Positions 20,734-50,860 of a DNA stretch of 51,505 nucleotides are shown here, one piece after another. Made by a program: the position numbers and the translations under genes. The DNA lies in NCBI GenBank assembly GCA_031266655.1, contig JAISAP010000047.1, positions 1-51,505 on the forward strand, in the 5' to 3' direction. Under the pieces are notes generated by a model that worked only from the letters and a program-made list of their open reading frames with translations, was not told the DNA's origin and did not search any database. Origin of the DNA: Holosporales bacterium. GTDB lineage: Bacteria > Pseudomonadota > Alphaproteobacteria > UBA3830 > JAIRMZ01. Within the stretch, counting starts at the first letter, position 1. Each line of letters opens with the position of its first letter.

Positions 20734-21660
20734 ATGCCCCTATACACCAAGAAAGCACTGCTTATAGCGGTAGTACTCTTCTCATTCCTCCCCAAGGGAG
20801 AGGGCATGAATCCGACAAAAGTCATCACAACAGGAGAGGAGCGGCTGCTGTGTGCGATGACCAGCGATCCTGCCAGGTTGCAACACATATTGTTGCATTT
20901 TGTCAGCAATAAGGCCGATATTCAGGGTATTATTTCCCTCATTGACATTAGAGAGAAACTCCTCCATGGCATTTTGTGCCTAGAAGGCGAGGATCCAACA
21001 GGATTTGTACAAAACATGGTAAAATACTTCCTGGCAGAAGCTAAGCGAAAACGCTCCTCTTGCTTTTTCGGCAGAGGAACCGTTTTGATGCCGGACGCAT
21101 CGAATCCAGATATACGGATCCTCACTACGGGATTGGAGCTAAGAGGAGCCCTTGTAGGCGTGAATGAACGGTATCGCTTCTACATGTTCTCTCATAACAG
21201 GAAAATCGCAAAAGTTAAGGGCGGAAAGCTTTATAAATTTAACCCCGCTGGCAGGGCACGTCTCGTAGAGGGCTTCTCGGGAGGGAGAGATATGGAATTA
21301 AGAATACACCTTCGACACTATACAGATTCCCATGGAGCACTAGTAAGAACGGAAGGCACTCTTTTCTCTGCGTTGAGTGAAGAGCTCTTGGGTGAAGTAC
21401 TGCACTACGAAAAGGAAGTAACGCCGTTCTCCCATCTTGTAAACTTTTTGGAAACAACCTACACGGGCGATGCCTATAGGTGGGTGCAAGACCGTCAAGA
21501 AAATTTGTACGATCTCGTCTGCAAATTTCGCGCAGAATTGCCTCAAGGGGCGGATCTCCAGCAGGCTCTTTTCTGCGTCACTGGGAAAGCTTTGGGAGGA
21601 ACCATAGGAAGGGAAGAGCAACAAGAACTATGTGGACACCTTTTTTCTCTGCTTCATTAA
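20734..21660 (+). CDS. Exported protein of unknown function, paralog A of a tandem pair
   Basis: AGGAG lies 5-6 nt upstream of the ATG. Hydrophobic leader KKALLIAVVLFSFLPKGEG|M. Aligns end to end with 22178..23116 through shared blocks HILLHF, HGILCL.GE.P..FVQ, EAKRK, F.SG.RDMEL and EGTLFSAL.E. No known domain recognised. Confidence 0.8.
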   Translation: MPLYTKKALLIAVVLFSFLPKGEGMNPTKVITTGEERLLCAMTSDPARLQHILLHFVSNKADIQGIISLIDIREKLLHGILCLEGEDPTGFVQNMVKYFLAEAKRKRSSCFFGRGTVLMPDASNPDIRILTTGLELRGALVGVNERYRFYMFSHNRKIAKVKGGKLYKFNPAGRARLVEGFSGGRDMELRIHLRHYTDSHGALVRTEGTLFSALSEELLGEVLHYEKEVTPFSHLVNFLETTYTGDAYRWVQDRQENLYDLVCKFRAELPQGADLQQALFCVTGKALGGTIGREEQQELCGHLFSLLH

Positions 21661-21669
21661 GCGAGAAGC

Positions 21670-21698
21670 GAAGGGGGCGGAAGAGCAGCGCCCCCTTC
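21670..21698 (+). terminator. Candidate intrinsic terminator hairpin after paralog A
   Basis: GAAGGGGGCG (21670-21679) pairs perfectly with CGCCCCCTTC (21689-21698), 10 nt after the stop codon. The 3' tail is only weakly T-rich. Confidence 0.5.
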
Positions 21699-21822
21699 CC
21701 CTGTTCTTGGATGTTAACGGAAACTTCTTTGTTTCCAACCCAGATAGAATGAAGTCTCTTGAGAAAAACGGTACAAAAAACAATTCGCAAGAACAGTAGT
21801 GCTGACGTTTCGCGTGTTCTCT

Positions 21823-21833
21823 CCCCCCCCCCC
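21823..21833. repeat. C11 homopolymer tract in the spacer between the paralogs
   Basis: ctCTCCCCCCCCCCCACCg: eleven consecutive C at 21823-21833. Confidence 0.9.
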
Positions 21834-22070
21834 ACCGTTAAAGAAAAACTCCATGGAGGAAAACACCATTAACTATACTTATGAGCGCTTTTGAAAGTTA
21901 ATATTGCTGTAGGGTGCTGAAAAGAATTCTCGAGAGTTTAGTTTGACGAGAGTCACTACGTTGCTGAACCCTCGTAGAGAAGCGTTTAACCAAGCTTTAA
22001 TGACTTGAAAAGTAACTGGGCAGAATGTGAGTTCCGATATAACAACAGAACCTCATCAGTGCGCCATATA

Positions 22071-22177
22071 CCGACTAAAATAATCTAGTCAGTCTACAAT
22101 TTGGATATAAAATACTTACTAAATGACATATTTTAAGACTTTCTTAACACAATACGATTAATATCGAACGACAGTCA
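22071..22177 (+). promoter_or_regulatory. AT-rich conserved upstream element (copy 2)
   Basis: See 20608..20733. The order of conserved blocks is the same, and the distance to the coding region is similar. Confidence 0.5.
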
Positions 22178-23116
22178 GTGGCAGTAAATGAACGAGTGCA
22201 AAAAAAGTTACTGCTTGTTGCGGTCACATTCTTGTCATTCCTTCCTAAAGGAGGAGGAATGTCTCAGCCCGGAACAATAACGGGCGAAGATATAAAGCCT
22301 CTTCAGGCGGCAATTAACGATACGCGCAGACTGGAGCACATACTACTTCATTTTGCTCAGGATGAAGCTGCAATTGAGGGAATCATGGGTCAAGCTCGCA
22401 TGGGTGACAAGAAGTTTCATGGCATTCTGTGTCTAAATGGCGAAAATCCAGTAAAATTTGTACAAGAAACGTTGTTCCACTTCCTTGAGGAAGCCAAGCG
22501 AAAACCCAATTCCGATTTTCTTACAAAAGGTGAAGCGTTGCTTCCATTGGGGCCAGAGGATCCGAACGCAAAGATTCGTGTCACGAAACTTTCCCTAGAA
22601 GGAACCCTCCCAGGTGTAGATACAGACAAATATAGTTTTCACCTGTTCCATTTTGGAGAGAAAGTTGCAGAAGTCAGGAAGGGAGTACTTTACAGGATTG
22701 ATCCCGACGGCGGAAAATATCCCATTGAGGATTTCTCTGGAAGTAGAGACATGGAACTCTCAATGTTTCTCCGGTGTTACGTTTCGGATCGGGATATAGT
22801 AAAGGCGGAAGGTACTCTCTTCTCTGCGCTAGAAGAAAAGGTTTTTTCCACGGTCCTCTTTGAACCGATCCAAAAGCTGGAAGCCTTTTTGGTGGACTCT
22901 GCGCCCCAAATTGCCGCGCTAGGTGCACATGAGTGGTCTCAAGACAATTCAGACCTGTACAATCTTCTTTTTGAGGCTAAGGAGTGTGCCGTGTCTAAAA
23001 GGCTGGACTATAGGAACGTTCTCTCCACTGTTATCAGAAGAAGCCTGAACGGAACTGCCGTAGGATCGGCTGAACGAACAATGCTATTCGGATATTCTAT
23101 GGACCTGGTTTACTAA
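22178..23116 (+). CDS. Exported protein of unknown function, paralog B of the tandem pair
   Basis: Leader KKLLLVAVTFLSFLPKGGG|M. Alignable throughout with 20734..21660. The start is ambiguous: GTG at 22178 or GTG at 22196. The internal ATG at 22259 is preceded by AAAGGAGGAGGA. Confidence 0.8.
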   Translation: MAVNERVQKKLLLVAVTFLSFLPKGGGMSQPGTITGEDIKPLQAAINDTRRLEHILLHFAQDEAAIEGIMGQARMGDKKFHGILCLNGENPVKFVQETLFHFLEEAKRKPNSDFLTKGEALLPLGPEDPNAKIRVTKLSLEGTLPGVDTDKYSFHLFHFGEKVAEVRKGVLYRIDPDGGKYPIEDFSGSRDMELSMFLRCYVSDRDIVKAEGTLFSALEEKVFSTVLFEPIQKLEAFLVDSAPQIAALGAHEWSQDNSDLYNLLFEAKECAVSKRLDYRNVLSTVIRRSLNGTAVGSAERTMLFGYSMDLVY

Positions 23117-23229
23117 TCAATCGCAAAGAGGAGTGGGAGAGAATAGCTCTTTCCCACATGCGCTTGTGCTCTGACGGAAACTTTCCTTACACTAACCCGA
23201 AGGGCGTTGAGCCCGTTAAGGAGCAGAGT

Positions 23230-23817
23230 ATGGGAAGGAACCTTGCAAAGGCAGTCGCTAGTTTGACAGTTGTATTGGCGTTTTGTGGCGTTACGGTAAA
23301 GGGGAGTTCTATGGAAGGGGTATCCATATACCCCGATATAGAAGAAACTGAATTCGGAAAGCGACCCATTTTTCGACTTGTCAAAACCGACAGGAAAGTT
23401 ATGAAAAGTGACTATCTGAAAGGGGTAGGGGGATCTGTAGTTTTACCTCAAACGCCAGAAGAGCTGGAAAAGCGCTACCAGCAGTATGCAAAGGTGGGGG
23501 ATGTTTATAAGCTGATAGACTGTGACTGTTTTCAGAAGGAGGGTTTTCTAACGTACGAGATCGTCTTCTCCTGCTTTGAAAAAGCAAGCCCGGCGGACCT
23601 TTTCCCAATGCTCAGGAGCTACGCCACTCTCCTGCGGAAACACTCAAGCGGGACTTTTGTCTCTTTCTTCTCGGGAGGGCTTGATCATAGTTTGAGTGGA
23701 GCACGTACCATGTTGGAACGGTCGCGCGATGCGTGTGACATGACGGACAAGGACCTGTTCCTGGACGTTCTTGCTGAAGAATTTGATAACATTTCCGGAC
23801 TTTTCAAATCTCAATAG
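23230..23817 (+). CDS. Small exported protein of unknown function
   Basis: AAGGAG lies 7 nt upstream of the ATG at 23230. Leader MGRNLAKAVASLTVVLAFCGVTVKGSS|M. Track ORF begins at 23158. No recognisable domain. Confidence 0.7.
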   Translation: MGRNLAKAVASLTVVLAFCGVTVKGSSMEGVSIYPDIEETEFGKRPIFRLVKTDRKVMKSDYLKGVGGSVVLPQTPEELEKRYQQYAKVGDVYKLIDCDCFQKEGFLTYEIVFSCFEKASPADLFPMLRSYATLLRKHSSGTFVSFFSGGLDHSLSGARTMLERSRDACDMTDKDLFLDVLAEEFDNISGLFKSQ

Positions 23818-24088
23818 ACGTTTATGTTCCTACTCTCAATAAAACAGCCGTTCTAAAGGAGAACTTCTTGCTAGTAGTCGTGCCGAGGATGACTCCATTC
23901 GGCAAAACAGGAATGTAAGGTTCAGGGTGCGAAGAAACGTAGATGAAGAGGGACTGTATTCTTGTAGAAGGAGTTTTGGTCGTGCTTTATTCGGGGACAT
24001 ACGCGTGAGACGAAAGAAGACCCTAATTTGGGTTGGCATGGTTTTGTTGGGATAGAGGCTACAGCGAGTAGTAAGGATGCTCCTCAAA

Positions 24089-25732
24089 ATGAAGCAACGG
24101 AAGATTTTAGAGGCGATTGTTGTTGGCTCCTCAGGGGCTCTGAGTGCCTTTTCCGAGGTTGATGCAATGTGGTGGGATCTTGATTCCCTCCGGAGCGTGG
24201 CTGTTGTTCAAGGAGAATTAGTTACACCCTCTTCTCAGCCTGAAGAAGGTGTTGTGTTATGGCTAGGCACAGAGGCCGCTCATGCTTGGGGGCCTGATTG
24301 GCGCTTTAGCTTGTGTTACGTTGTTGTTCCCTGGAACATGGAGGTGCTGGGTGTGAGGTGCTTCGAAGGGTGTCACTTTCTCACCGCTGTTGTCTTCGAA
24401 TGGGGTTCTGCACCCCGAGTCATAGCAGAAAGAGCCTTCGCTGATTCCGGCCTTCAATCTTTCACTATTTTTGCGAGTGTGGGGGTTCTTGGAAACGAAT
24501 GTTTCGCAGATTGCCAATCTCTTGCCTGCGCCGTCTTTGAGGTTGGTTTTCCGCTCCGGACTATCGGGAAGGGGGTTTTCGCACGTTCTGGTCTGCAAGC
24601 ATTCACTATTCCCGCGGGCGTGGAGGTGCTGGCTGCAGGGTGCTTCGACAGTTGCCAATCTCTCACTTCCATCGTTTTTGAACAGGGTTCTAAACTTCTA
24701 GCCGTAGAAGAAAGGGCGTTTGCCGATACCGGTCTGCGATCCTTCACTATTTTTGCGAGCATAGAGGTGCTTGGGAAAGAATGTTTCGCAGGCTGCCAAT
24801 CTCTTGCCTGCGCCGTCTTTGAGGTTGGTTCTCCGATCCAGACTATCGGGGAGGGAGTTTTTGCCGGCTCTGGTCTGCAAGCATTCACTATTCCCGCGGG
24901 CGTGGAGGTGCTGGCTGCAGGGTGCTTCGACGGTTGCCAATCTCTCACTTCCATCGTTTTTGAACAGGGTTCTAAACTTCGAGTCATAGAAGAAAGAGCG
25001 TTTGCCGATACCGGTCTGCTGTTCTTCCATGTTTTTGCGAGTGTGAGGGTTCTTGGAAACGCATGTTTCGCAGACTGCCAATCTCTTGCCTACGTTACCT
25101 TTGAGGTCGGTTCTCCGCTCCAAACTATCGGAGAGGGAGTTTTTGCCCGCTCTGGTCTGCAAGCATTCACTATTCCCGCGGGCGTAGAGAAGATTGGAGA
25201 AGGCTGTTTTGCCTATTGCCAATCGCTTTCCAGTGTTGCCTTTGAGGGTGGTTCGCATCTCCAAACTATCGGGGAGGGAGTTTTTGCCGGCTCTGGTCTG
25301 CAAGCATTCACTATTCCCGCGGGCGTGAAGGTGCTGAGTGCAAACTGCTTTGCAGGTTGTCAACTTCTCACCGCCCTTGCCTTCGAACCGGGTTCTCAAC
25401 TCCGAGCCATAGGAAAAGCGGCCTTTATCGACTGCGCCAACTTGCCGTCCATTTGCATTCCCGCGGGCGTGGAGAAGATTGGAGAAGGCTGTTTTGCCTA
25501 TTGCCAATCGCTTTCCAGTGTTGCCTTTGAGGCTGGTTCGCATCTCCAAACTATCGGGGAATGTACCTTCCTTGCTTCCAGTATATGCTCCATAGGGATC
25601 CCCGCGAGCGTAGAGGAGATTGGGGAATGTTGTTTTCTGGATTGCCAATCGCTTGGCTCTGTCACCTGCAACAGTTCGCGATTTATCGTAGTGCGTCGAG
25701 GCTGTGGGTGGGAAGTTTATAAGCGCGAATGA
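24089..25732 (+). CDS. BspA-type leucine-rich-repeat protein (LRR_5-like), LRR1
   Basis: About 20 units of the ~23-24 aa repeat ..IPAGVEVLAAGCFDSCQSLTSIVFEQGSKLLAVEERAFADTGL.., with a 26-aa leader from the ATG at 24089 (the alternative ATG at 24077 is the track start). Nucleotide repeats are in 141/282-nt register. Confidence 0.88.
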   Translation: MKQRKILEAIVVGSSGALSAFSEVDAMWWDLDSLRSVAVVQGELVTPSSQPEEGVVLWLGTEAAHAWGPDWRFSLCYVVVPWNMEVLGVRCFEGCHFLTAVVFEWGSAPRVIAERAFADSGLQSFTIFASVGVLGNECFADCQSLACAVFEVGFPLRTIGKGVFARSGLQAFTIPAGVEVLAAGCFDSCQSLTSIVFEQGSKLLAVEERAFADTGLRSFTIFASIEVLGKECFAGCQSLACAVFEVGSPIQTIGEGVFAGSGLQAFTIPAGVEVLAAGCFDGCQSLTSIVFEQGSKLRVIEERAFADTGLLFFHVFASVRVLGNACFADCQSLAYVTFEVGSPLQTIGEGVFARSGLQAFTIPAGVEKIGEGCFAYCQSLSSVAFEGGSHLQTIGEGVFAGSGLQAFTIPAGVKVLSANCFAGCQLLTALAFEPGSQLRAIGKAAFIDCANLPSICIPAGVEKIGEGCFAYCQSLSSVAFEAGSHLQTIGECTFLASSICSIGIPASVEEIGECCFLDCQSLGSVTCNSSRFIVVRRGCGWEVYKRE

Positions 25733-25748
25733 CCAGGAAAGACTTCCG

Positions 25749-27392: not shown

Positions 27393-27396
27393 CCTC

Positions 27397-28866: not shown

Positions 28867-30441
28867 ATGAAACAGCAAAGACGTTTAGGAACGATGGTCG
28901 CATGGGCTTTGGGAGTGCTGGGAGCATGTCCCGCAACTGAAGCGATGCGGCAGCTTCTGGAAGAGTCTCCCGACGGACAAGAGCGGGTTATCCTTCCCGC
29001 AGAGCTGAAAACGCTGCATGCGAGCCTTTTCGCCAATCACTTCGCTCCTTTCTCTGTTACTTTTGATCAGGGCTCTCGTTTTACGGAGATAGAAACACAC
29101 CTTTTCGCTTATTCCAGGATTCAGTCCGTTATCCTTCCCGCAAGCGTAGAAGTGCTTGAGGCAAGTTGCTTCGCCCATTGTCCATCGCTCATCTCCGTCA
29201 TGTTTGAAGCTGGTTCCTACCTGACCATCATCAGGGAGAATGTTTTCCAAGATTCTACTTTGCAGTCCATTGTGATCCCTGCGCGCGTGGAGGTCATGGG
29301 TGCACGGTGCTTCTCGGGGTGCCACTCGCTTGCTACCGTTGTCTTCGAAGCGGATTCCCGACTCGCGAGATTGGAGGAAGGCGTTTTCTGGAGCTCTAGC
29401 CTGCCCTCTCTCACCCTTCCGGCAAGCGTAGAGGTGATGGCAGAAAAGTGTTTTCAATTCTGTCAGTCTCTTGCTGCGCTTGCCTTTGAGACCGATTCTC
29501 GGTTGAGAAGCATAGAGGCGGACGCCTTTGCTTATTCTGGCTTGCCCTCTATCACCCTCCCAAGGAGTGTGGAAATGCTGGGAGTTGGGTGTTTCAGATA
29601 CTGCCGATCTCTTGTCTCCCTTGTCGTTGAGGAAGATTCTCGACTCGGAGATGTGGGAAGCGAAGCGTTTGCGGGAACGCTTTTGACAAGCATTGATTTC
29701 CCGGGTGGAGTGGCTCTTGGGGACTGTGTGTTTCAAGATTCTTGCATCCGAGAAATATACCTTGGAGGTGCCTTAGTGGACACTTCCAGTGACGCTTACG
29801 CAGGTGCCAAAATGCTGCAAAAACCGAAAGTGAGACAGGATGCACCACCCCCCAAGCCCTCTGAGGAGGGACGTTTGCAGGCACAGTTCCTCCTCAGCCA
29901 AATACAGGCCCAAGATCCGGCGTCTCCGATGGATACGAAAGAGATGCTGAAAGAGCTTTCCCCCCTCGTCCAGATGCGGAACCTAGAGGATCTGAACAAT
30001 GCCTTGGCTTCCTCCAGTTCTGGCGTTTCTGTGCACTCCGAGATGCATCTCCGGCAGCAAGGAGGGCTGCAGCGTACTGACCAACCTCTAGGTCTGGCTC
30101 TCGACGGAACAGGACCCTTTCAGAGCGCCAAAGAAGGCCTCTTGGGCAAATCCGCGGGCCTCTCCCTCCAAGATTGGTCCTTGCCGCAAGGGGGTCAGGG
30201 GATGGAAACCGGCGATGGCTCCCATGATGCGATTCCTGCTTCAGGGGCCTTCCGAACTGGGGTCTCGGGGGAGGGTGGATTGAGCATAATTGCCTCAGGC
30301 ACTCTGGAGCGCTCTCCCACAGATCTTGCCCACGAACTTTCCGAAATGATCCGCGCCCAATACGCTGCCAGTACCAAAGTCCTCTCTACCCTCGACGATA
30401 TGCTCGATATGTGCAACGTATCAGACGCGCCAAATGCCTGA
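28867..30441 (+). CDS. BspA-type LRR protein with a non-LRR C-terminal domain, LRR2
   Basis: AAAGGTG lies 6 nt upstream of the ATG at 28867 (the track start is the GTG at 28858). 26-aa leader MKQQRRLGTMVAWALGVLGACPATEA|M. About 11 LRR units (..LPASVEVMAEKCFQFCQSLAALAFETDSRLRSIEADAFAYSGL..) followed by ~210 aa with no repeats. Confidence 0.85.
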   Translation: MKQQRRLGTMVAWALGVLGACPATEAMRQLLEESPDGQERVILPAELKTLHASLFANHFAPFSVTFDQGSRFTEIETHLFAYSRIQSVILPASVEVLEASCFAHCPSLISVMFEAGSYLTIIRENVFQDSTLQSIVIPARVEVMGARCFSGCHSLATVVFEADSRLARLEEGVFWSSSLPSLTLPASVEVMAEKCFQFCQSLAALAFETDSRLRSIEADAFAYSGLPSITLPRSVEMLGVGCFRYCRSLVSLVVEEDSRLGDVGSEAFAGTLLTSIDFPGGVALGDCVFQDSCIREIYLGGALVDTSSDAYAGAKMLQKPKVRQDAPPPKPSEEGRLQAQFLLSQIQAQDPASPMDTKEMLKELSPLVQMRNLEDLNNALASSSSGVSVHSEMHLRQQGGLQRTDQPLGLALDGTGPFQSAKEGLLGKSAGLSLQDWSLPQGGQGMETGDGSHDAIPASGAFRTGVSGEGGLSIIASGTLERSPTDLAHELSEMIRAQYAASTKVLSTLDDMLDMCNVSDAPNA

Positions 30442-30520: not shown

Positions 30521-31117
30521 TTACTCAGGAGAAGGAGTCCAGAGTATAGGTAGTGCTCCATCATTCGGAGTATTGAGCCGTGGCCCAATAACAGTGGGCT
30601 GCGACGGCTTAGCCGCCTTGAAGTTCAACGGAGCCGGATAACGATAGCGCCTACGATGGCCTCCCTCCGCCCGAAGAAGGGCAAGATCTCGTAGCCTCGC
30701 ACACTCTCCACGAGAGTTCTCATTGAACAGTGCCCCTGTGTGTCTGTTCAAATCATCGTACCTCCCATCCCTCGTTAAATTAAGATATCTGCTTTTCGTA
30801 GGACTATCGGCTCCCATGGGCAGCAACACTGCCGTAGCTTCGTTCGGAATTGAATAGAATGCCCAAGTCCTCTGATGATCCAATGTCTCTCCATTCCAAA
30901 TGACTGTCAGATCTACACGCCCAAACCTCGACTTCAAGCTGTCACCAACAGCTTCCTGTTTATTCATGTTTCTCGCTCGTATGACCACTTGGCCTGGCAG
31001 AAGGAATCTCATCTCCGATTGATCGTTCTCCGACTGGGAAGAATCGGGAGACATGGCCTGCGCAACCATTCCATAGCAAAACAGCACCCCTAACATCGAT
31101 CCTAATATTTTTCTCAT
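30521..31117 (-). CDS. Small exported protein of unknown function
   Basis: Leader MRKILGSMLGVLFCYGMVAQA|M from the ATG at 31117. Track ORF starts at 31234 inside an extremely AT-rich spacer. No recognisable domain. Confidence 0.65.
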   Translation of the reverse strand: MRKILGSMLGVLFCYGMVAQAMSPDSSQSENDQSEMRFLLPGQVVIRARNMNKQEAVGDSLKSRFGRVDLTVIWNGETLDHQRTWAFYSIPNEATAVLLPMGADSPTKSRYLNLTRDGRYDDLNRHTGALFNENSRGECARLRDLALLRAEGGHRRRYRYPAPLNFKAAKPSQPTVIGPRLNTPNDGALPILWTPSPE

Positions 31118-31439: not shown

Positions 31440-33002
31440 ATGGGACAGCACAAGGGTTTTCGCACGATTTCTGTGTTGATTCTGGGAGTGCTGAGCGTTC
31501 CTTCCAAGCCTGAAGCGATGCAATCGGAACGGGCCCCTGGTATTTCTGTTTTCCCTAGAAGAGGGGTCGCTCGTGCGGGGAGATTCGTTCCGTTTCCTAT
31601 CATTGAATCCTGCATAAACGACCAGATGGTAGGGGGCATTGCTTGGAAAGCCTGTCGGTGTTTTCCCTTACAATCCCTTGTTGTTCCCGCCTCCGTGAAG
31701 GGGATGGGAGTTGGATATTTCGAAGATTGTCGTTCTCTGGTCTGGGTTGTTTTCGAATGCGGTTCTCAGCTCCGAGACATTAAAGAGCGCACTTTCGCAA
31801 ATGTCGGTTTGAGGGCTATTGCGATTCCCAAAAGCGTTGAGACAATCGGAGAGTGGTGTTTCGGGAATTGCGATTCTCTAGCCTTGGTTACCTTTGAAGT
31901 TGGCTCTCGACTCCAAGACATTGGGGAAAACGCCTTCTTTGATTCTGGCGTGACAGCCATGATTCTGCCCGTAAGCGTTGGAAAAATTGGAAAGAATTGT
32001 TTCATGAATTGCGATTCTCTAGCCTTGGTTACCTTTGAAGTGGGATCTCGACCCCAAGACATTGGGGAAAACACTTTCTTCAATGTCGGTTTGAGGGCTA
32101 TTGCGATTCCCAAAAGCGTTGAGAGAATCGGAGGGTGGTGTTTCGCGAGTTGCCTTTTTCTAGCCTGGGTTACTTTTGAAGTTGGCTTTCGACTCCAAGC
32201 CATGGGAAAAAGCGCTTTCTTTAATACCGGTTTGAGAGCCATTACCCTTCCCACCAGTCTTGAGAGGATTGAAAGGGAGTGTTTCATGAATTGCCGATCT
32301 TTGACCTCGTTCACCTTTGAAGCGGGATCTCAACCTCAAGAAATAGGAGAAAGTTCCTTCGCTGGTTCTGGCGTGACAGCCATGACTCTGCCCGCAAGCG
32401 TTGGAAAAATTGGAAAGAATTGTTTCATGGATTGCCGATCTTTGACCTCGTTCACCTTTGAAGCTGGTTCTCAACTCCGAGACATTGGAGAAAGTGCCTT
32501 CTTTGGTTCCGGCGTGACAGCCATGATTCTGCCCGCAAGCGTTGGAAAAATTGGCAAGAATTGTTTCATGAATTGCCGATCTTTGACCTCGTTCACCTTT
32601 GAAGCTGGTTCTCAACTCCAAGACATTGGGGAAAACGCTTTCTCTAGTACCGATTTGAGAGCCATTACCCTTCCCGCCAGTCTTGAGAGAATTGGAGAGG
32701 GTTGTTTCGCGAATTGCCGATCTTTGACCTCGTTCACCTTTGAAGTGGGATCTCGACTCCAAGCCATGGGAAAAAGCGCCTTCGCTGGTTCCGGCGTAAC
32801 AGCCATGACTCTGCCCGCAAGTGTTGAGACAATGGGAAGGTGGTGTTTTATGGATTGCCGATCTCTTATCTTCGTTGATTCTGAGGAGGGCTCCCGGCTC
32901 ACGAGAATTGAGGCAAACACTTTCTCTGAGAGCCCTCAGGTGCAGCTCTCTCTTTTTCTCAGCAGCTTAATGGAGGCTAGCGCGACTGCCCCGCCCCTCT
33001 AA
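31440..33002 (+). CDS. BspA-type LRR protein, LRR3 (highly regular 141-nt repeats)
   Basis: 26-aa leader MGQHKGFRTISVLILGVLSVPSKPEA|M from the ATG at 31440 (track start 31413). Units take the form ..LPASVGKIGKNCFMNCRSLTSFTFEAGSQLQDIGENAF..G..A... The TGC-of-CxSL register recurs at 31869, 32010, 32151, 32292, 32433, 32574, 32715 and 32856. Confidence 0.88.
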   Translation: MGQHKGFRTISVLILGVLSVPSKPEAMQSERAPGISVFPRRGVARAGRFVPFPIIESCINDQMVGGIAWKACRCFPLQSLVVPASVKGMGVGYFEDCRSLVWVVFECGSQLRDIKERTFANVGLRAIAIPKSVETIGEWCFGNCDSLALVTFEVGSRLQDIGENAFFDSGVTAMILPVSVGKIGKNCFMNCDSLALVTFEVGSRPQDIGENTFFNVGLRAIAIPKSVERIGGWCFASCLFLAWVTFEVGFRLQAMGKSAFFNTGLRAITLPTSLERIERECFMNCRSLTSFTFEAGSQPQEIGESSFAGSGVTAMTLPASVGKIGKNCFMDCRSLTSFTFEAGSQLRDIGESAFFGSGVTAMILPASVGKIGKNCFMNCRSLTSFTFEAGSQLQDIGENAFSSTDLRAITLPASLERIGEGCFANCRSLTSFTFEVGSRLQAMGKSAFAGSGVTAMTLPASVETMGRWCFMDCRSLIFVDSEEGSRLTRIEANTFSESPQVQLSLFLSSLMEASATAPPL

Positions 33003-35005: not shown

Positions 35006-35194
35006 CGCTGTTTCTCCTGCAATCTATGGAATGTCCATTTTGGGATAAAATTATTACCAATTGGTAAACTAAGCACATTTTTTGCGCCAATTCATCAAAA
35101 ATTCCCCAATATACTCCCGCATAGCGCCTCTCTCCCTTCTCCAGTCGGATTCCTGGGATGACAAGGCATGCAATCTCGAGTATCTTGCCGAGGG

Positions 35195-35280
35195 GCCCAG
35201 GTGGCGGAATTGGTAGACGCGCTAGATTCAGGTTCTAGTCTGTTCTGCAGGTGGAAGTTCGAGTCTTCTCCTGGGCACCA
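35195..35280 (+). tRNA. tRNA-Leu (anticodon CAG), type II with long variable arm and encoded CCA
   Basis: GCCCAGG acceptor / CCTGGGC-A-CCA. Anticodon stem CTAGA/TCTAG with loop TTCAGGT (CAG). Long variable arm. T-arm GGAAG-TTCGAGT-CTTCT. Confidence 0.92.
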
Positions 35281-35292
35281 TCGGGAGAAAAC

Positions 35293-35904: not shown

Positions 35905-35908
35905 CTGC

Positions 35909-37977: not shown

Positions 37978-38867
37978 CGGTACATGCCCACGCGGGGGGT
38001 AAACTTATTTTGGTCGGCGAGCATGCCGTTGTCTATGGACATCCCGCGGTCGCCATTCCCCTTCCTTCCCTCACGGTCGAAATCAGTGTGAACACTGCGC
38101 AGGAGCCAAATACCCTGTTCTCGGAAGAAGAATGGGGGAGGGTCATGCGCGCCTTCCTGCTCTGTCGCCAGCTCTTGGCGCGCCAATATCCTCCTATTCC
38201 GACAGGAGGCCTTCCTCCCTTGCGGATCCAGTCTTCTCTACCCCTTGGCAAGGGCTTGGGGGGAAGTGCGGCGGTGAGTATCGCGCTGGTACGGTTTTGC
38301 GCGCAATGGTTCTCGATCGATCTCACGGTGCGTGAAGTGGCCTCTTATGCAAACCAACTCGAGTCCATCTTTCACCATGCTCCCAGCGGGGTAGATGTCG
38401 AGACGGCCCTGTCCTCTGCTCCCCTCTTTTTCCAGAAAGGCCAACCAGGGCGCACGCTGCCCGCGCTTCCCCCTTGCAGTATCGTCCTGATCGATACGCG
38501 AGAGCATGCCTCTACGGAAAAGATGGTGCGGTGTTTGCAAAAACATCTGGAGGAGACCCCCGCCGACCATCAGCATTTGCAGGCGATAGGGTCCCTTGCC
38601 CAAGATGTGAGGCAAGCGATAGAGCAGCAAGATCTTCCACGGCTGGGCGCCTCTCTGACGCAGGCCCAGGGTCATTTGCGCGCGCTGCACCTATCGACGC
38701 CTGCCCTGGATCGCGCTGTAGCAACGTTGTGCGATAAGGGAGCGCTTGGGGCGAAGATGACAGGCAGTGGAGGCGGAGGAATAGCGTTCGGCGTGTTTTC
38801 CTCTCCGCCGGATCTCTCTTCGTTGCAAGCGTGCGGAGATACCTTTTTGTTAGACAGAACTCTGTAG
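37974..38867 (+). CDS. mvk: Mevalonate kinase
   Basis: GGKLILVGEHAVVYGHPAVAIP, PLGKGLGGSAAVSIALV (GHMP motif II) and KMTGSGGGGIAFGV (motif III). The ATG overlaps the mvaD stop as ATGA. The N-terminal 333 codons of track ORF 36975..38867 are out-of-frame read-through of mvaD. Confidence 0.88.
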   Translation: MTVHAHAGGKLILVGEHAVVYGHPAVAIPLPSLTVEISVNTAQEPNTLFSEEEWGRVMRAFLLCRQLLARQYPPIPTGGLPPLRIQSSLPLGKGLGGSAAVSIALVRFCAQWFSIDLTVREVASYANQLESIFHHAPSGVDVETALSSAPLFFQKGQPGRTLPALPPCSIVLIDTREHASTEKMVRCLQKHLEETPADHQHLQAIGSLAQDVRQAIEQQDLPRLGASLTQAQGHLRALHLSTPALDRAVATLCDKGALGAKMTGSGGGGIAFGVFSSPPDLSSLQACGDTFLLDRTL

Positions 38868-43654: not shown

Positions 43655-43669
43655 GGATTGCATTTTGCA
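43655..43669 (+). promoter_or_regulatory. Weak candidate sigma-54 -24/-12 element
   Basis: aGGattgcattTTGCa has GG-N10-GC spacing identical to the TGGCACG-N4-TTGCW consensus. The -12 half matches well and the -24 half poorly. It lies about 55-65 nt upstream of ORF 43723/43735. Confidence 0.2.
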
Positions 43670-43722
43670 TTTAATTAAATAATTTTTTAACTATTTAGTC
43701 GCATAATCCAAAAAAAACGGAA

Positions 43723-44280
43723 ATGGAGACTTCCATGAGGAAAAGTATACTATGCTTTGCGGCAATATCGTGCGCGTTCATGAGTTTTGGGATGCAGCAG
43801 GATCCAGAGAGAGGGACCCTGATAGACCTCCAGCAAGCACCTGTTCTGCATCGTACGCTTTCCATGGATCCTCCCCCCGATCGTCCTGATCAGGCACAGC
43901 TTCCAGAGGAAGAGTTTCCCATGCAACTTTTGGCGGAAAGTCGGTGCGTTCTCTGGTGTTTGCGATTTGGTACCACCTGCTGTTTCCTTTCGCGGAATGT
44001 TCTCAACATTCTTTCCGTACTTCTTTACACCACGGCGAGCGGCCTCCTTATCGTACCCGAAAAGCTGACAGACGATTTCTCCACTCTGAAATGGTGCAAT
44101 ATAGCGGCTGTTTTTATGGTTGCAGGTGCCGCTGCCTCTCGAGAACTGGCCATACGCGCGCAAGATCACGTGATCAACAACGAGCGAGAATATGCCCGCA
44201 TCATGGAGTACCAGCGACAACAGCAGCAGCGGCAGACAGCGGAACTTGAAGGACAAACACCCGCTGCCACGGAAGTATGA
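43723..44280 (+). CDS. Hypothetical membrane/exported protein with a Gln-rich tail
   Basis: Leader MRKSILCFAAISCAFMSFG|M (the ATG at 43735 is the likely start). Two or three further hydrophobic segments (VLWCLRFGTTCCFL, ILSVLLYTTASGLLIV, IAAVFMVAGAAA) and a tail YQRQQQQRQTAE. Preceded by a very AT-rich spacer. Confidence 0.55.
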   Translation: METSMRKSILCFAAISCAFMSFGMQQDPERGTLIDLQQAPVLHRTLSMDPPPDRPDQAQLPEEEFPMQLLAESRCVLWCLRFGTTCCFLSRNVLNILSVLLYTTASGLLIVPEKLTDDFSTLKWCNIAAVFMVAGAAASRELAIRAQDHVINNEREYARIMEYQRQQQQRQTAELEGQTPAATEV

Positions 44281-44373
44281 GACTAAGACACGACGTAACC
44301 TGATTAAAAAGGGAGCAGTGCGTGCGTTCTGAAGCTATCCAGGGTAGAATGTTCTGTCCTGGAGGAAAAGACT

Positions 44374-44790: not shown

Positions 44791-44796
44791 GGGAGC

Positions 44797-45783
44797 CTAT
44801 CGCCAAGAAAGCGCAGAGGGCATAGCGCGTTCCTCCTCCTTCAGAAGGTCGAGCACCTCTGGGTAAGCCTGAATGACGGCGGAGCTCTGTCGTACAAAGC
44901 GACCCATGGGAGATCCCGAGACGGGATGCGATAAGTATAGTTGCTTCAAGTCTTTCCACCCCCTCTCCAGAACGTGGATCTTTGTTCCCTTGCGTATAGC
45001 CATGACCCAACACCAAGTCTCTTCGTCATAGGGGGCAAGCTTGGAGGCGATGTCCATGCGGAAGACATCGTCATGCAGCGTATGCGGCGGATACAGCACG
45101 CCACTCGATGTCGAGGGGACGTATAAAAGGGAGGGTTCCTCGTCCTTATCGACTTCAAGAAAGGGCCCATGACGCACCCAGTGGTAGAATTCTCCGCCCA
45201 CAAAGGAGCGATAGACCGTTCGAGCATGGATGCAAGTGGGCCTTTTCTGGTAGGCCGAAAACAGTCCCTCCAGCCAATCGGGAGAGTACATCATGTCGTC
45301 ATCGGCAATCACCAGGATGTCTTCCGGGTAGTCCCGCAAAGCGGGGATGATCTTCTTCCGTGAGTTCAGATTTTCGCACCACCGAATAGACAGGCCGCAT
45401 TGGCACAAGTGGAGGAGCTCATCTGGCAAATCGTATTCCTTATGAGGAAATTCCTCTTCCGCAAGCCACAAAAGGACGGCATCGGGCTTTAAAGATTGCG
45501 TGAGCAACGTGTAAATCGCCGCGTAAATCTGTCGGATCCGCGGAGGATGAGAAGAAAGGGAGACGATTAGCCGAGGCGTAGGTCGAGGAGGCGTTTGCAG
45601 ACCCCCTGCCTTTAAGCGATAGAGCTTGATGCGTGTTTCCTGCAGACGCACGCGCGTTGTGTAACCCTGCCAAGCAGGTCTTATGGAGTTTATCAGGTGG
45701 TGGAGGAAGGGAGTCCTGTAGAAAACCGTGCGCGCCACCTCCTTCCACAGGCGCCGATCGGCGTACCGCTCCTCCTCCCTCAT
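44797..45783 (-). CDS. Putative DXD glycosyltransferase, paralog of 7701..8702
   Basis: RLIVSLSSHPPRIRQIYAAIYTLLTQSLKPDAVLLWLAEEEFPHKEYDLPDELLHL...KKIIPALRDYPEDILVIADDDMMYSPDWL aligns throughout with 7701..8702. The ATG at 45783 overlaps the upstream GT4 stop as ATGA. Confidence 0.6.
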   Translation of the reverse strand: MREEERYADRRLWKEVARTVFYRTPFLHHLINSIRPAWQGYTTRVRLQETRIKLYRLKAGGLQTPPRPTPRLIVSLSSHPPRIRQIYAAIYTLLTQSLKPDAVLLWLAEEEFPHKEYDLPDELLHLCQCGLSIRWCENLNSRKKIIPALRDYPEDILVIADDDMMYSPDWLEGLFSAYQKRPTCIHARTVYRSFVGGEFYHWVRHGPFLEVDKDEEPSLLYVPSTSSGVLYPPHTLHDDVFRMDIASKLAPYDEETWCWVMAIRKGTKIHVLERGWKDLKQLYLSHPVSGSPMGRFVRQSSAVIQAYPEVLDLLKEEERAMPSALSWR

Positions 45784-46910
45784 AAAGAGGATTCCGCTAT
45801 GGCTTCCGTGATCACACTTTTCCAAAGTTGGCGATTGCGATCCTCCGAAAAACGCTCCGGAAGACGGCGCGCATTGCGACTGAGACGTTGACGCTCCTCT
45901 GGATGGTCTATTAAGAAGGCTATCTTTTCCGTCAAAGCAGCCCCATCTCCCACAGGAACAAGCAAGCCATCGATGCCGTCTCGCACAAGCGTTCTGTTCC
46001 CAAGGCAGTTGGAGGCGACAACGGGAAGTCCGACCGCCATCGCTTCGCAGAGCGCATTGGGAAACCCCTCATGGCGCGAGGGAAAAGCGAACAAATCCGC
46101 ACGAGCAAGCATCTCTTCTATCTCCGTCGTTGCTCCCGGAAGGGAAACACGATCCTCCACCTTATACGCCCGAATCTTTTGCTCCAAGAAGACCCTATAG
46201 GGCCCTTCCCCGTAGAGAGTCAACTGGAGAGAGGGATGGCTGGGAAAAAGTTGCACGCAGCTCTCGAGCAGCAGATCAAACCCCTTGTCGGCATCCAGCC
46301 GTCCGGAAGACACGAGAAAACGCACATTTTTGCGGATCGTGCAATGCTTGGAGGGAGAACGCACCCCATTAGGGATCACACAGATGTTCTTCTGGAGAGA
46401 CCGAGGAAAGTAAGAAGCCACTGTGGGAGTTTGCACCACTACTTTTCGCGCCCATCTATAGGTTCTTCGACGCAGTGCATCGCAAAAGCGCCCTATCTTG
46501 TACATAAAGGGGTCCGAGCGCTCTGCAACGATGACGGGCGCGCCCAGCCCGCGACTAACCAGGAGCGTCAGGATGTTGGTGATATCCACGTAGGAAATAA
46601 TCACGTGAGGGCGAAACGCCCTTAAGGCGTGCCGAAGAGCGACCATGCACAAAAAACGCCGTAGAGAAGCGCAGAATCTCTCAGCGAGGAAATGATCTTT
46701 CAGGAAGCAGAGACGCACCCGAGCATCGAGCGGATAGACCGGCGGATTTTTTGAAGATGTAAAAGCGAAAATACAGACTTCTTTCTCCTCTGAGGCCCAG
46801 AAATTGGCGCATACGGAGAGGTCTCGCTCTGCTCCCCCGAGGCCTAGGGAGGAAATGACAAAGGCTAGCCGCTCCTGCTTGGTTCCGAGCGCGCCGACTC
46901 GAGCAATCAC
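45780..46910 (-). CDS. Glycosyltransferase family 4 (group 1 / GT-B)
   Basis: C-terminal FAFPSRHEGFPNALCEAMAVGLPVVASN...LV (E-X7-E-type motif) and an N-terminal SLGLGGAER. The start is a GTG that overlaps the upstream stop. Confidence 0.85.
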   Translation of the reverse strand: MIARVGALGTKQERLAFVISSLGLGGAERDLSVCANFWASEEKEVCIFAFTSSKNPPVYPLDARVRLCFLKDHFLAERFCASLRRFLCMVALRHALRAFRPHVIISYVDITNILTLLVSRGLGAPVIVAERSDPFMYKIGRFCDALRRRTYRWARKVVVQTPTVASYFPRSLQKNICVIPNGVRSPSKHCTIRKNVRFLVSSGRLDADKGFDLLLESCVQLFPSHPSLQLTLYGEGPYRVFLEQKIRAYKVEDRVSLPGATTEIEEMLARADLFAFPSRHEGFPNALCEAMAVGLPVVASNCLGNRTLVRDGIDGLLVPVGDGAALTEKIAFLIDHPEERQRLSRNARRLPERFSEDRNRQLWKSVITEAIAESSL

Positions 46911-48090: not shown

Positions 48091-48241
48091 GCGGGGCTTT
48101 TCCTGAAATACCGTTGGAAAGTGAAGCTACCAAAGAATTCTTTCCAAGACCATGTCGGTAGAGCTCCCTTCGATTTTTACCGTGTTGATTTTTAAAAATC
48201 TTTCGCCATACTGTTTACTTCCAATATCAAGCGAGAAAATA

Positions 48242-49543
48242 GTGACTATACGAAAAATTTTATATGCAACTTCTCTGTTTACCGCAGGAGTGCTGAGCGT
48301 CTTTCCTGAGGCTGGAGCAATGCAGAGATGGGAAGAACCCTCTGATGGATGGTTCCTTGCTTTTAGGAATGAGGTCGCTTGGCAGGGAATAGCCCTCATG
48401 CCTTTTGGACCCGAAAGTATGATCGAGGGTACTCCACGCTATCCTGGTTTGCAGCGCATCTTTATTTCTGCATGCATGGAGGCGCTTGGAGGGTGTTGTT
48501 TCGCTGGGCTTCAAGCCCTCTCCCATATCGCTTTTGAGGCTGGTTCTCGAGTTACGTGTATGAACACGGGTGTTTTCCAGGGGTCCGCCTTGCAGGCCAT
48601 ATGTATTCCCGCGCCTGTAAAGAAACTCGGGAAATGTTGTTTTTCGCACTGTTCGTCTCTTACCTGCGTTACTTTCAGTTCCCCTTCTCAACTCGCAGTC
48701 ATTGGAGAATATACGTTTTCTAAAACAGCGCTGAGCTTCCTCAATCTCCCGTTTCATCCCTCATATGACATAGAGGTTGGGATCTGCCCATTTGACGAGT
48801 CTAGCATCGTGAGGATATGTATCGGAGGAGAGCCTGTGGACCCTCAGACTGGTCTGTACGCTGGCACCGGCATTGTGCGAGACGTAACGATTCACCAAGA
48901 GCTTCCGTCTTACTGCTTTGCAAGTTGCCGCTCTCTCACTTCTGCCACCTTTAAGCCTGATTTTTCCCCTGCAACGATAGAGTCGTACGTCTTCTACAGG
49001 TCTGGTTTGCGGAGCGTGACAATCCCCGCAAGTGTGGAGACGATCATGCAAAGATGTTTTTCAGCTTGTACCTCCCTTGCTTTCGTTGCCTTTGATGCTG
49101 GTTCCCGGCTCACGCGTATAGAGCCTTACGCTTTCTGTAATACTGCCCTTCCAAGTATCGTGATCCCCGCAAGCGTAGAAACCATCATGAAAAGATGTTT
49201 CGCTCAGTGTCAGTTTCTTATCTCTTTTTCTTTCGAGGCCAGTTCCCGACTCACGGAGATGGGAGAAGGCGTTTTTTTCTGTTCTAATTTGAGGAACATA
49301 GCCGTTCCTGCGGGCGTTACGGCGCTCAGGAAAGAGTGCTTCTTCAGTTGCCCTTTTCTTATTCACGTTACTTTTGGAGCTGGTTCCCAACTCAAAAGCG
49401 TATGCGCAGACGCTTTCTCCAGAAGCCCTCAGGCACAAGTTCTTCTTCCGGATAGAAAGAATTACTCTTCCAAGCAGCTTAGTTCGGGTTGGACGTTGGA
49501 GGAGGAATTAGGCAAGAGCCCCAGCTCATCCACTCCCTCGTGA
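48242..49543 (+). CDS. BspA-type LRR protein, LRR4
   Basis: The in-frame GTG at 48242 gives the 26-aa family leader (TIRKILYATSLFTAGVLSVFPEAGA|M); track ORF starts at 48152. The N-terminal block WEEPSDGWFLAFRNEV is shared with LRR5, followed by LRR units (..IPASVETIMQRCFSACTSLAFVAFDAGSRLTRIEPYAF..). Confidence 0.85.
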   Translation: MTIRKILYATSLFTAGVLSVFPEAGAMQRWEEPSDGWFLAFRNEVAWQGIALMPFGPESMIEGTPRYPGLQRIFISACMEALGGCCFAGLQALSHIAFEAGSRVTCMNTGVFQGSALQAICIPAPVKKLGKCCFSHCSSLTCVTFSSPSQLAVIGEYTFSKTALSFLNLPFHPSYDIEVGICPFDESSIVRICIGGEPVDPQTGLYAGTGIVRDVTIHQELPSYCFASCRSLTSATFKPDFSPATIESYVFYRSGLRSVTIPASVETIMQRCFSACTSLAFVAFDAGSRLTRIEPYAFCNTALPSIVIPASVETIMKRCFAQCQFLISFSFEASSRLTEMGEGVFFCSNLRNIAVPAGVTALRKECFFSCPFLIHVTFGAGSQLKSVCADAFSRSPQAQVLLPDRKNYSSKQLSSGWTLEEELGKSPSSSTPS

Positions 49544-50860
49544 GGGCTGAAGAAGGTATCCTGTTGGTGTCTGATTCAGGGAAGCGCGTTGCCAGCCCTG
49601 GTCTAGCCGTACTGCGGAGCGTACCTCTCCCTCTGGAGGAAGAGCGACCTGTGCCTGAGGGCTCCCAGTAAAGGCACCTGCTTCTATCTCTTCCAGTCGA
49701 GAAGCAACCTCAAAGGCGATGAAGGTGAGGGAAAAACAACTTGCGAAGCATTGTTTCCTCAGTATTGTAACACCTCTAGGAATAATAATATTTAGTATGC
49801 CAGAATGGGCAAAAGCGCCCTTTTTTATTTGCGCAACCCTAGAATGCACGCCAAAGGAAACAGAGGTAAGAGATAAGCAATCCATAAAACACCATTCCCC
49901 AAGCACTTCTACACCATCGGGAAGCACCATGGAGCGCAAACCAGCACGGAAGAAAGCTTTCTCTCCAACAACTCTGAGTTGGGAATTTTTCACAAAGTTA
50001 AAACAGGCAAGAGCAAGACAATGAGAGAAACATCCTTTGTCAAGCTTCCCAACGCCTGCGGGTAGGTCGATAGACTGATCGCGGGTGCCTTGAAAAGCGC
50101 CCCCTTTTATGATCATGAGGCGGGAGCCGGCTGCAAAGGTAATATCGACCAGGGGTGAGCAATAGAGGAAACACTCTTTCTCGATCCTCTCTACGCTCGC
50201 GGGAATCGTCACAGACTGTAAACCGGAAGTGTTGAAAACGCTCTCTCTGAGGATTGTGAGTGGAGAACCTACTCTGAAGGTAACGAAGGCAAGGGACTGG
50301 CACTGTACGAAACATCCTTTACCAATCTCCCTTACGCTCATGGGAAGTGTAGCGGAATGTAAGCCGGAATGAGAAAAAGCATACTCCCCTATCTCCATGA
50401 GCTGGGAACCGAATTCAAAGGCGGCGTGAGCAAGCGAGGAACAGCGCGAAAAGCAAGAGTATCCAAGCGTCTCCACGCTCGCGGGAAGACAAATGGAACT
50501 CAAGCTGGAGCAGCCTCTAAAGGCGCTCTGCTCTACCGTCACGAGCTGAGAATTGGCTTCAAAGGCAACGAAGATAAACGAGAGGCAATCAGCAAAGCAC
50601 GCTTCTTCAAGCTTCCCGACGCTCGCGGAAATGCAGAGGCACTGTAGACCAGGATGGCGCGGAGCATGCTGTGCATCTTCAGGAAGCTCAGAAGCAAGGA
50701 TGCGCATCCCCCACCGCATCACTGTATTCCTAGAAGCGAGGAACCATCCAAAGAGAGACTCTTCCCAGATCTTCGGCTGCATCGCCTCCGCCTTGGAGAG
50801 GGTCCCTAGCACTCCCAACATCAATAGAGAGCATGACTTTAAAATCTTTCGTTTCTTCAT
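49526..50860 (-). CDS. BspA-type LRR protein, LRR5
   Basis: Leader MKKRKILKSCSLLMLGVLGTLSKAEA|M, then the WEESLFGWFLASRNTV block, then ~14 LRR units. Its 3' end overlaps LRR4 by 18 nt (convergent). Confidence 0.88.
   Translation of the reverse strand: MKKRKILKSCSLLMLGVLGTLSKAEAMQPKIWEESLFGWFLASRNTVMRWGMRILASELPEDAQHAPRHPGLQCLCISASVGKLEEACFADCLSFIFVAFEANSQLVTVEQSAFRGCSSLSSICLPASVETLGYSCFSRCSSLAHAAFEFGSQLMEIGEYAFSHSGLHSATLPMSVREIGKGCFVQCQSLAFVTFRVGSPLTILRESVFNTSGLQSVTIPASVERIEKECFLYCSPLVDITFAAGSRLMIIKGGAFQGTRDQSIDLPAGVGKLDKGCFSHCLALACFNFVKNSQLRVVGEKAFFRAGLRSMVLPDGVEVLGEWCFMDCLSLTSVSFGVHSRVAQIKKGAFAHSGILNIIIPRGVTILRKQCFASCFSLTFIAFEVASRLEEIEAGAFTGSPQAQVALPPEGEVRSAVRLDQGWQRASLNQTPTGYLLQPSRGSG

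Follow-up and report, generated by a model that had tools for sequence, protein, structure and literature searches.

Methionine at the predicted cleavage site of accessory signal peptides in a Holosporales genome: probably a start codon, old or second, rather than a new sorting tag

Why do accessory proteins of one uncultured bacterium of the protist-symbiont type carry a methionine exactly where their N-terminal leaders seem to end? The question is raised by a contig of the metagenome-assembled genome (MAG) "Holosporales bacterium" (locus tags LBJ70_*), which was analysed over its full 51,505 bp and is called the window here. Ten accessory open reading frames (ORFs) with a leader are interspersed among the conserved genes of the window; five encode BspA-type leucine-rich-repeat (LRR) proteins (LRR1 to LRR5), and five are orphans (A1 to A5). 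According to the original prediction, these ORFs are otherwise unrelated and share one leader, which ends in a small residue followed by Met, looks like a lineage-specific export or sorting tag, and might allow one mRNA to yield both an exported and a leaderless product. The N-termini and DNA strings quoted in it were all found in place by direct translation. We found that Met directly behind the predicted cut (+1) occurs beyond chance, is restricted to accessory genes, and is invariant in the LRR family. It probably marks a start codon, either an old one or a second one, and no novel sorting tag.

Signal-peptide anatomy and methionine at position +1

A positively charged n-region followed by a hydrophobic core is present in all ten leaders of the window and in 14 further leaders. 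The leaders are laid out as a basic n-region, an uncharged hydrophobic core, a short polar stretch, and small residues at -3 and -1, with Met directly afterwards. Among 13 leaders inspected, 12 possess small residues at -1 and -3 and have no Pro from -3 to +1; examples of the sites are AEA↓M, AGA↓M, TEA↓M, VDA↓M, GEG↓M, GGG↓M, GSS↓M, AQA↓M and SFG↓M. The exception is LRR3, whose Pro at -3 is unusual in sites of signal peptidase I. Cleavage sites were obtained with a hand-made rule that scores the hydrophobic core and the -3/-1 site, and that was applied equally to controls. With this heuristic, the top-scoring sites of LRR5 and A4 were AEA↓M and AQA↓M, and the site of A1 was GEG↓M. The heuristic gave no site in A5, because the hydrophobic core of this leader extends to -2. 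Judged by this anatomy, the leaders are ordinary Sec-type signal peptides of the signal peptidase I kind with the predicted cut directly before Met, and we infer Sec as the export route and cleavage immediately in front of this residue.

Other leader classes were considered. The lipoprotein (signal peptidase II) class does not apply, since residue +1 is Met and not the invariant Cys. The twin-arginine motif of the Tat class is absent; the n-regions are Lys-rich (MKKRKIL), and RR was found only in LRR2, outside the consensus context. A type IV prepilin would not match either, as the hydrophobic segment precedes Met, and polar, acidic residues open the mature part. The sites of A2 (GGG↓M) and A1 (GEG↓M) recall the double-glycine leaders processed by C39 peptidases, yet both leaders possess a classical hydrophobic core of 12 residues. 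A search of the ten proteins for the phytoplasma SVM signal (PF12113) gave no hit at E <= 0.01. The LRR2 leader also harbours a lipobox-like L-G-A-C (residues 18-21; 28918-28932), which is not conserved in the other 17 leaders of the LRR family.

The genome sample comprised the window and five small contigs of the same MAG, ~72 kb in total. In this sample, Met occupies +1 in 14 of 30 signal-peptide-like N-termini (47%), against 4 of 267 (1.5%) over all ORFs in ~1 Mb of unrelated loci scored with the same heuristic, which corresponds to a ~30-fold enrichment (Fisher p = 1e-12). The 14 cases include one false positive, a cytoplasmic thioesterase, and LRR1, LRR3 and A5 were missed or mis-sited by the rule. 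As paralogs are not independent, per-sequence p-values overstate the evidence and counts of families are safer; at a background of 2%, at least five out of ten families would carry Met with p ~7e-7.

The residue is found in five out of six accessory exported families. It is absent from all four conserved exported proteins checked, namely LptA, the M48-TPR protease and BamE in the window, and an ABC substrate-binding protein on contig L027; for the three proteins of the window, including the BamE lipobox, its absence had already been pointed out in the original prediction. The original prediction asked whether the leader marks only accessory genes; in the sampled ~72 kb, the junction with Met is confined to LRR proteins and to orphans without Pfam or NCBIfam hits. 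Similarly, none of 73 LRR_5 homologs with a signal peptide from other phyla has Met after the best site. In all 24 leaders the codon is ATG, never GTG or TTG, and no replacement by Leu, Ile or Val was found. A literature search did not reveal a report of Met at +1 in Holosporales.

Chance or ascertainment, that is, the picking of Met residues that merely lie near signal-peptide ends, is hardly credible as the source of this pattern. A lax rule (small-x-small followed by Met, within residues 16-35) does match 14 of 77 control proteins as well, and a single blind scoring rule was adopted for this reason. However, the Met residues of the controls sit within the hydrophobic or c-region, with a more canonical site downstream, and the blind rule applied to all ORFs still separates this genome from the controls, over five independent families.

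Leaders of the leucine-rich-repeat family and of the orphans

The five LRR genes of the window are clear members of Pfam LRR_5 (PF13306), with 174-346 bits against a gathering cut-off of 27.7. On the plus strand, LRR1 is located at 24089-25732 (E = 9.5e-105), with the leader at 24089-24166 and the Met27 codon at 24167-24169. LRR2 (28867-30441, plus strand, E = 8.5e-53) has its leader at 28867-28944 and its Met27 codon at 28945-28947, and LRR3 (31440-33002, plus strand, E = 1.3e-92) at 31440-31517 and 31518-31520, respectively. LRR4 (48242-49543, plus strand) begins with GTG, and its leader (48242-48319) is followed by the Met27 codon at 48320-48322. LRR5 (49526-50860, E = 8.8e-85) is encoded on the minus strand, with the leader at 50783-50860 and the Met27 codon at 50780-50782. 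LRR4 and LRR5 are convergent, and their 3' ends overlap by 18 nt. Besides the leader, several LRR paralogs (49400-49543 and 49526-49650 in the window; P0001, P0131 and P0133) share the C-terminal tail SPQAQVxLP...S..QL..GW. A further LRR_5-like fragment with BspA-type repeats in its translation is present at the window edge (50925-51485, minus strand), as an ORF without leader.

The leader of LRR1 to LRR5 has exactly 26 residues, as originally reported, and the same length was found in 13 further copies outside the window, with Ala26-Met27 in 18 out of 18. A 32-column leader profile was compared with 1.84 billion representative proteins and gave 15 leader-type hits, of which three (P0001, LRR4 and LRR2) were input to the profile and ten were new proteins of the same MAG on nine other contigs. 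All significant leader-type hits belong to this MAG, and most are LRR_5 proteins; two short hypothetical ORFs, P0125 (62 aa) and P0132 (126 aa), were without LRR annotation. Two further copies are the second gene on contig L111 and the JGI metagenome protein P0004 (contig L026), which comes from a different organism with 43% GC and was found by a separate search, not by the leader profile. In total, 18 leaders were collected, 17 from this MAG and one from the JGI metagenome, each consisting of 26 residues followed by Met. Since the profile contains Ala-Met, weak hits are biased toward this pair; hits of 45-59 bits would pass without Met, yet all of them carry it.

Translation of the leader, argued in the original prediction from synonymous differences between two paralogs, was confirmed with the 11 LRR leaders for which DNA was available. 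Differences at the three codon positions are 0.44/0.40/0.58, and frame 1 is the sole open frame in the 11 copies. Only four columns of the 18 aligned leaders have zero entropy, those of Met1, Leu18, Ala26 and Met27. Pairwise identity averages 43% for residues 2-26 and 10% for residues 28-40; position -3 varies freely, and the residues seen directly after Met27 (Q, R, S, L, E, N, H, V, W, Y) follow no pattern. At the DNA level, conservation extends from the start codon to about +90 nt, while the upstream sequence is at background. Duplication of a promoter-plus-leader cassette was ruled out on these grounds. The comparison of the copies thus supports the 26-residue leader as a trait inherited by descent within one paralog family of at least 18 members.

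Additional searches for the family returned little. A scan with LRR5 of species-representative genomes, a collection without this MAG, retrieved only unrelated gut-bacterial BspA proteins. A metagenome scan with a three-sequence alignment gave 80 loci, and among the best 40 of these 80, which were examined, none belonged to this lineage or had the leader. An alignment of 45 residues around the leader was also used in a word-indexed protein search, where none of the 11 candidates proved to be a match. The closest LRR relative outside the MAG is P0003 (contig L113, JGI 3300042615, 724-5453; E = 2e-66), which has no signal peptide and adjoins two genes for eukaryote-type protein kinases (Pkinase, 222 bits); these neighbours suggest that L113 is a protist contig.

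The C-terminal third of LRR2 (29872-30417, plus strand) is not composed of LRRs. Residues 336-392 resemble the N-terminus of FlgD and residues 445-517 the C-terminus of FlgE/FlgG, according to matches with Pfam FlgD and Flg_bbr_C and with NCBIfam FlgE and FlgD. From these matches, the LRR2 ORF seems to run in frame into the remnants of a decayed flgD-flgE pair.

Among the orphans, A1 (20734-21660, plus strand) is predicted to be a secreted protein of 308 aa. Its leader at 20734-20805 (MPLYTKKALLIAVVLFSFLPKGEG) is followed by the Met25 codon at 20806-20808, and homologs of A1 were found only within the same MAG. A2 (22178-23116, plus strand) is a paralog of A1 with 40% identity; its leader (22178-22258) starts with GTG, and the Met28 codon at 22259-22261 follows AAAGGAGGAGGA. 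A third copy, P0122, is located on another contig of the MAG. Within the leader of this A1 family, 12 of 25 positions are invariant, including the leader end SFLPKGxGM, where conservation is highest within the first 45 residues; no position is invariant from Met25 up to Asp45. A3 (23230-23817, plus strand, 195 aa) has its leader at 23230-23310 (MGRNLAKAVASLTVVLAFCGVTVKGSS) and its Met28 codon at 23311-23313. Its placement as a remote member of the A1 family was ruled out (hhalign probability 0.1). A4 (30521-31117, 198 aa) is encoded on the minus strand, with the leader at 31055-31117 (MRKILGSMLGVLFCYGMVAQA) and the Met22 codon at 31052-31054. A5 (43735-44280, plus strand, 181 aa) has its leader at 43735-43791 (MRKSILCFAAISCAFMSFG) and its Met20 codon at 43792-43794.

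None of A1 to A5 matched Pfam or NCBIfam, nor a PDB sequence better than E = 0.1. In mature A4 (30521-31054, minus strand), residues 52-110 weakly match the ubiquitin part of ubiquitin-S27a (PDB 5opt_j, E = 0.1), and the single-sequence AlphaFold model of mature A4 was unusable (pLDDT 33). After its leader and a Pro/Gln-rich stretch, A5 possesses two more hydrophobic segments at 43990-44200 (CVLWCLRFGTTCCFL...ILSVLLYTTASGLLIV and WCNIAAVFMVAGAAA), and may therefore be a membrane protein instead of a soluble secreted one.

The ten ORFs are consequently not unrelated, as LRR1 to LRR5 are paralogs and so are A1 and A2. Nor is one leader common to them. Scored with a profile built from the 18 LRR leaders, A1 to A5 reach -0.2 to 4.8 bits, within the range obtained for LptA and for signal peptides of unrelated bacteria. 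The best of these, the A4 leader, was considered as a shortened LRR leader (RKIL...MLGVL...A.AM) and rejected, as 4.8 bits correspond to E = 0.25 among 130 sequences. Given these scores and the two sets of paralogs, the sequences point to five independent leader types, namely the LRR family, the A1/A2/P0122 family, and the singletons A3, A4 and A5. Of the proposed lineage-specific export or sorting tag, the translated Sec-like leaders and the lineage-specific junction of a small residue with Met hold, whereas the leaders themselves are of at least five unrelated types.

Start signals and competing explanations

Public annotations disagree on the starts of these genes. A1 (P0121), A5 (181 aa, MDR1267406.1), LRR2 (P0124) and LRR4 (NCBI protein P0002, 433 aa) were deposited with the leader. 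NCBI, JGI and Logan all begin A2 at Met28 (285 aa, MDR1267388.1). NCBI begins A3 at Met28 as well (168 aa, MDR1267389.1), while JGI and Logan begin it at the upstream ATG at 23158. For LRR1, LRR3 and LRR5 no deposited protein was found under any start tried. GTG is the annotated upstream start in at least three of the 18 LRR copies. The upstream GTG of A2 has no Shine-Dalgarno sequence (0.1 kcal/mol), whereas no other such sequence in the window is as strong as that of its Met28 (-12.1); the upstream start of A3 possesses the strong Shine-Dalgarno sequence AAGGAG (-8.4).

RNA structure was compared as minimum free energy (MFE) of 60-nt windows, with 165 internal ATGs as controls. The upstream starts of the leaders lie in AT-rich, unstructured RNA (mean MFE -7.1, GC 0.40), and starts of conserved genes gave -11.8. 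The control ATGs gave -13.3 (GC 0.52), and the test separates true starts from them (p = 3e-6). The ATGs of the internal Met show no relaxed structure, with an MFE of -14.7 and an unpaired fraction of 0.476 against 0.473 in the controls.

Anti-Shine-Dalgarno pairing before Met averages -5.8 kcal/mol, compared with -4.8 to -5.2 at true starts and -3.6 kcal/mol before 171 control internal ATGs, and is stronger than in these controls (p = 0.03). The purine run behind these values, which the original prediction had described as Shine-Dalgarno-like, is present as quoted. It is strong in the A1 family and A3 (-7.8 to -12.1 kcal/mol), of medium strength in roughly half of the LRR copies, and lacking in three out of 11 (LRR2, LRR3 and P0137). 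As independent evidence for initiation it does not serve, because shuffling of synonymous codons according to the codon usage of the window reproduces it (observed -5.76, expected -5.56 kcal/mol, p = 0.37). Its source is the richness of the leader end in Glu, Lys and Gly, a composition that is itself unusual for a c-region, and codon choice contributes nothing extra. Glu makes up 15% of the leader ends and 3.7% of the controls, and Lys 6% and 0.9%. Back-translated leader ends gave -5.56 kcal/mol against -3.36 kcal/mol for control c-regions (p = 1.6e-5), and four of the five families fall in the top 20% of the controls.

For A1, A2 and P0122, a hairpin of -12 to -14 kcal/mol (-12.5 in A2) is predicted, with both the purine run and the ATG in its stem. 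The hairpins were located at 20785-20811, at 22238-22264 and at about 3970-3995 of contig L027. One side of the stem consists of the pyrimidine-rich Phe-Leu-Pro codons (TTCCTYCCY), the other of the purine-rich Lys-Gly-Glu/Gly-Gly codons together with the ATG. The hairpins may be a mere by-product of the conserved peptide SFLPKGxGM.

The explanation that we favour, tentatively and at less than even confidence, is that ordinary Sec leaders were gained by 5' extension. Orphan or acquired genes would have gained export through a new in-frame start at a more upstream position; what used to be the 5' untranslated region, Shine-Dalgarno sequence included, would now be translated into a leader end rich in Lys, Glu, Gly and Ala, and Met at +1 would be the retained original start codon. 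An origin as start codon is favoured because the codon is the canonical start, because leader ends resemble translated ribosome-binding sites, and because the trait is limited to orphan and possibly acquired genes. The Glu/Lys composition fits the look expected of a former ribosome-binding site under translation. In support, the upstream starts resemble true starts, gene finders begin A2 and A3 at Met, and conservation covers exactly the leader codons, with no conserved region upstream. That P0003 lacks a signal peptide and lies beside kinase genes would fit an acquired gene in need of a leader, and the reading of LRR2 into FlgD/FlgE remnants indicates that in-frame fusions occur in this genome.

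Several points weigh against 5' extension. Met27 is invariant in 18 out of 18 LRR copies, while residues 28-40 hold 10% identity and position -3 is free; a fossil should have decayed. Met is also kept in the second organism, with 43% GC (P0004 on L026). Together, these two observations imply that some selection still acts on Met, and 5' extension names none. Its target could be a second start, which the structure and codon tests disfavour, or the mature N-terminus. An accessory orphan of 176 residues on contig L111 (1649-2179) possesses a signal peptide without Met (...LLGKA↓DPG). A leaderless ortholog that starts at the homologous Met was not found, so that the ancestral state is itself inferred, and the enrichment is that of a ~72 kb sample of the genome with cleavage predicted by a hand-made rule.

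A continuing role for Met is the common element of two other explanations. If Met were a working second start nested in the gene, one mRNA would give two products, one exported through Sec and cut before Met, the other leaderless and cytoplasmic; an identical mature sequence would occur in two compartments, and the cytoplasmic copy could feed a secretion system such as type VI. In line with this, the residue is always encoded by ATG, though upstream starts include GTG, and Met27 is as invariant as Met1. Shine-Dalgarno-likeness before Met is at the level of true starts and above that of control internal ATGs, with the highest values in the A1 family and A3, and the uncommonly high Glu and Lys content of the leader ends gives them a Shine-Dalgarno-like character; in A2 and A3 gene callers pick Met, and the upstream GTG of A2 is without Shine-Dalgarno sequence. 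Moreover, internal starts just past signal sequences were proposed for single Salmonella genes (PMC13515050), and a type VI secretion system is conserved across Holosporales, where it is nearly universal (PMC11909080). On the other side, synonymous sites show no Shine-Dalgarno enrichment, and LRR2, LRR3 and P0137 retain Met without any such run. The mRNA at the internal ATG is structured like ordinary internal codons or more so, and in A1, A2 and P0122 both the run and the ATG are paired in the predicted hairpin. The computational tests thus lean against two products from one mRNA, and a nested second start is possible but doubtful. A genome-wide design, with an ATG at the cut site of most lineage-specific secreted genes and hence two delivery routes for one gene (Sec and a cytoplasm-fed one, e.g., type VI), is unlikely. 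A need at the protein level is decidedly unlikely. Here the mature exported protein would require Met as its first residue, for a lineage-specific processing or sorting step or for a stable, native-looking N-terminus in a eukaryotic host. The lack of substitution by Leu, Ile or Val in 24 leaders agrees with such a need, as do the position of Ala26-Met27 at the sharp edge of the conserved block and an internal ATG that does not look like an initiation site. In control bacteria, 65% of the residues that the heuristic places at +1 are of classes with a destabilising effect in eukaryotic N-degron pathways. Also in favour, the genes concerned encode LRR proteins and orphans of a sort typical of host-interaction factors in an obligate symbiont lineage (PMC11909080). 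However, N-degrons would be avoided equally well with Ala, Ser, Gly, Thr or Val, which do not occur, and the conserved exported proteins of the same genome do without Met. The residue that follows Met has no pattern, signal peptidase I accepts nearly any residue at +1, and we know of no export, sorting or processing system that recognises Met at this position.

Very unlikely is the explanation that some leaders are never made, and that A2, A3 and perhaps others truly start at Met, as in GenBank, with an upstream stretch that is decaying or was never translated. It agrees with the choice of Met28 for A2 in all three annotations and for A3 at NCBI, and with the Shine-Dalgarno values of the two A2 starts. 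Against it, the 27 upstream codons of A2 are open, hydrophobic, and more conserved with A1 and P0122 than the next 20 residues. The upstream start of A3 combines AAGGAG with a good signal peptide. The explanation is inapplicable to the LRR family, where the leader is in frame in 18 copies.

Genomic setting and comparison with known systems

The conserved genes of the window are consistent with an alphaproteobacterium, and include those for NtrY/NtrX, RpoN, LptC/A/B, LpxC, FtsI, RsmH, RNase E, SecG and a mevalonate-pathway cluster. Members of the Holosporales live in obligate association with eukaryotes, chiefly protists (PMC11909080). Across the A1-A2-A3 cluster (20000-24000) the GC content dips to 45-47%, compared with ~54% in the remaining window. 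Genes encoding acetoacetate-CoA ligase, RNase D and a mevalonate trio (GHMP kinase, diphosphomevalonate decarboxylase and mevalonate kinase) are located at 33050-38867, directly upstream of lptC-lptA-lptB-rpoN. Two paralogous ORFs with similar N-terminal sequences were found on the minus strand at 7701-8702 and 44797-45825, with only a faint signal of glycosyltransferase family 2 (E = 0.015 and 0.0018, respectively).

The disagreement of gene callers on the starts of leader-bearing genes already has a practical consequence for annotation, as A2 and A3 were deposited without their leaders and are missed by secretome predictions from public annotation. Should Met be the footprint of a gain of export by 5' extension, this genome would offer several independent cases in which cytoplasmic or acquired genes came to be secreted through the gain of an upstream start, with the old ribosome-binding site reused as cleavage region, and the junction would be a simple sequence marker for recently "secretised" symbiont genes. 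Should Met be a working second start, these would be the first family-wide dual-compartment proteins in bacteria, and effector prediction in uncultured symbionts would change.

Compared with known systems, the leaders resemble signal peptidase I substrates: the n-region is basic, the hydrophobic core spans about 10-15 residues, the c-region is polar with -3 and -1 occupied by small residues, and the mature part begins with acidic residues. They differ in that Met is the first mature residue in 47% of cases, against about 1.5-2% elsewhere, and in that Glu and Lys are unusually frequent in the c-region. In both families with several copies, moreover, the leader end is better conserved than the mature start.

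Phytoplasmas place one conserved signal peptide, the SVM signal (PF12113), on unrelated effectors such as SAP11 and SAP54 (PMC8026896). Similar to that system, a conserved leader is found here on fast-evolving secreted proteins of an obligate host-associated bacterium; unlike it, the conserved leader is limited to the LRR paralog family, and the other leaders are non-homologous. LRR1 to LRR5 and the 13 extra copies are clear members of the BspA-type LRR surface proteins (LRR_5), but the family possesses its own 26-residue leader, with a Met at +1 that is absent from the homologs of other phyla. For OmpX, PagC and YdgA of Salmonella, a review lists candidate in-frame internal starts just after the signal sequence (PMC13515050). 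As in these candidates, the genes described here contain an in-frame ATG whose use would remove exactly the export signal. The Salmonella candidates are isolated genes, whereas in this genome the ATG lies exactly at +1 in at least five gene families, an arrangement for which our literature search found no earlier description as a family-wide feature; moreover, the sequence signatures of an active start are here missing or ambiguous.

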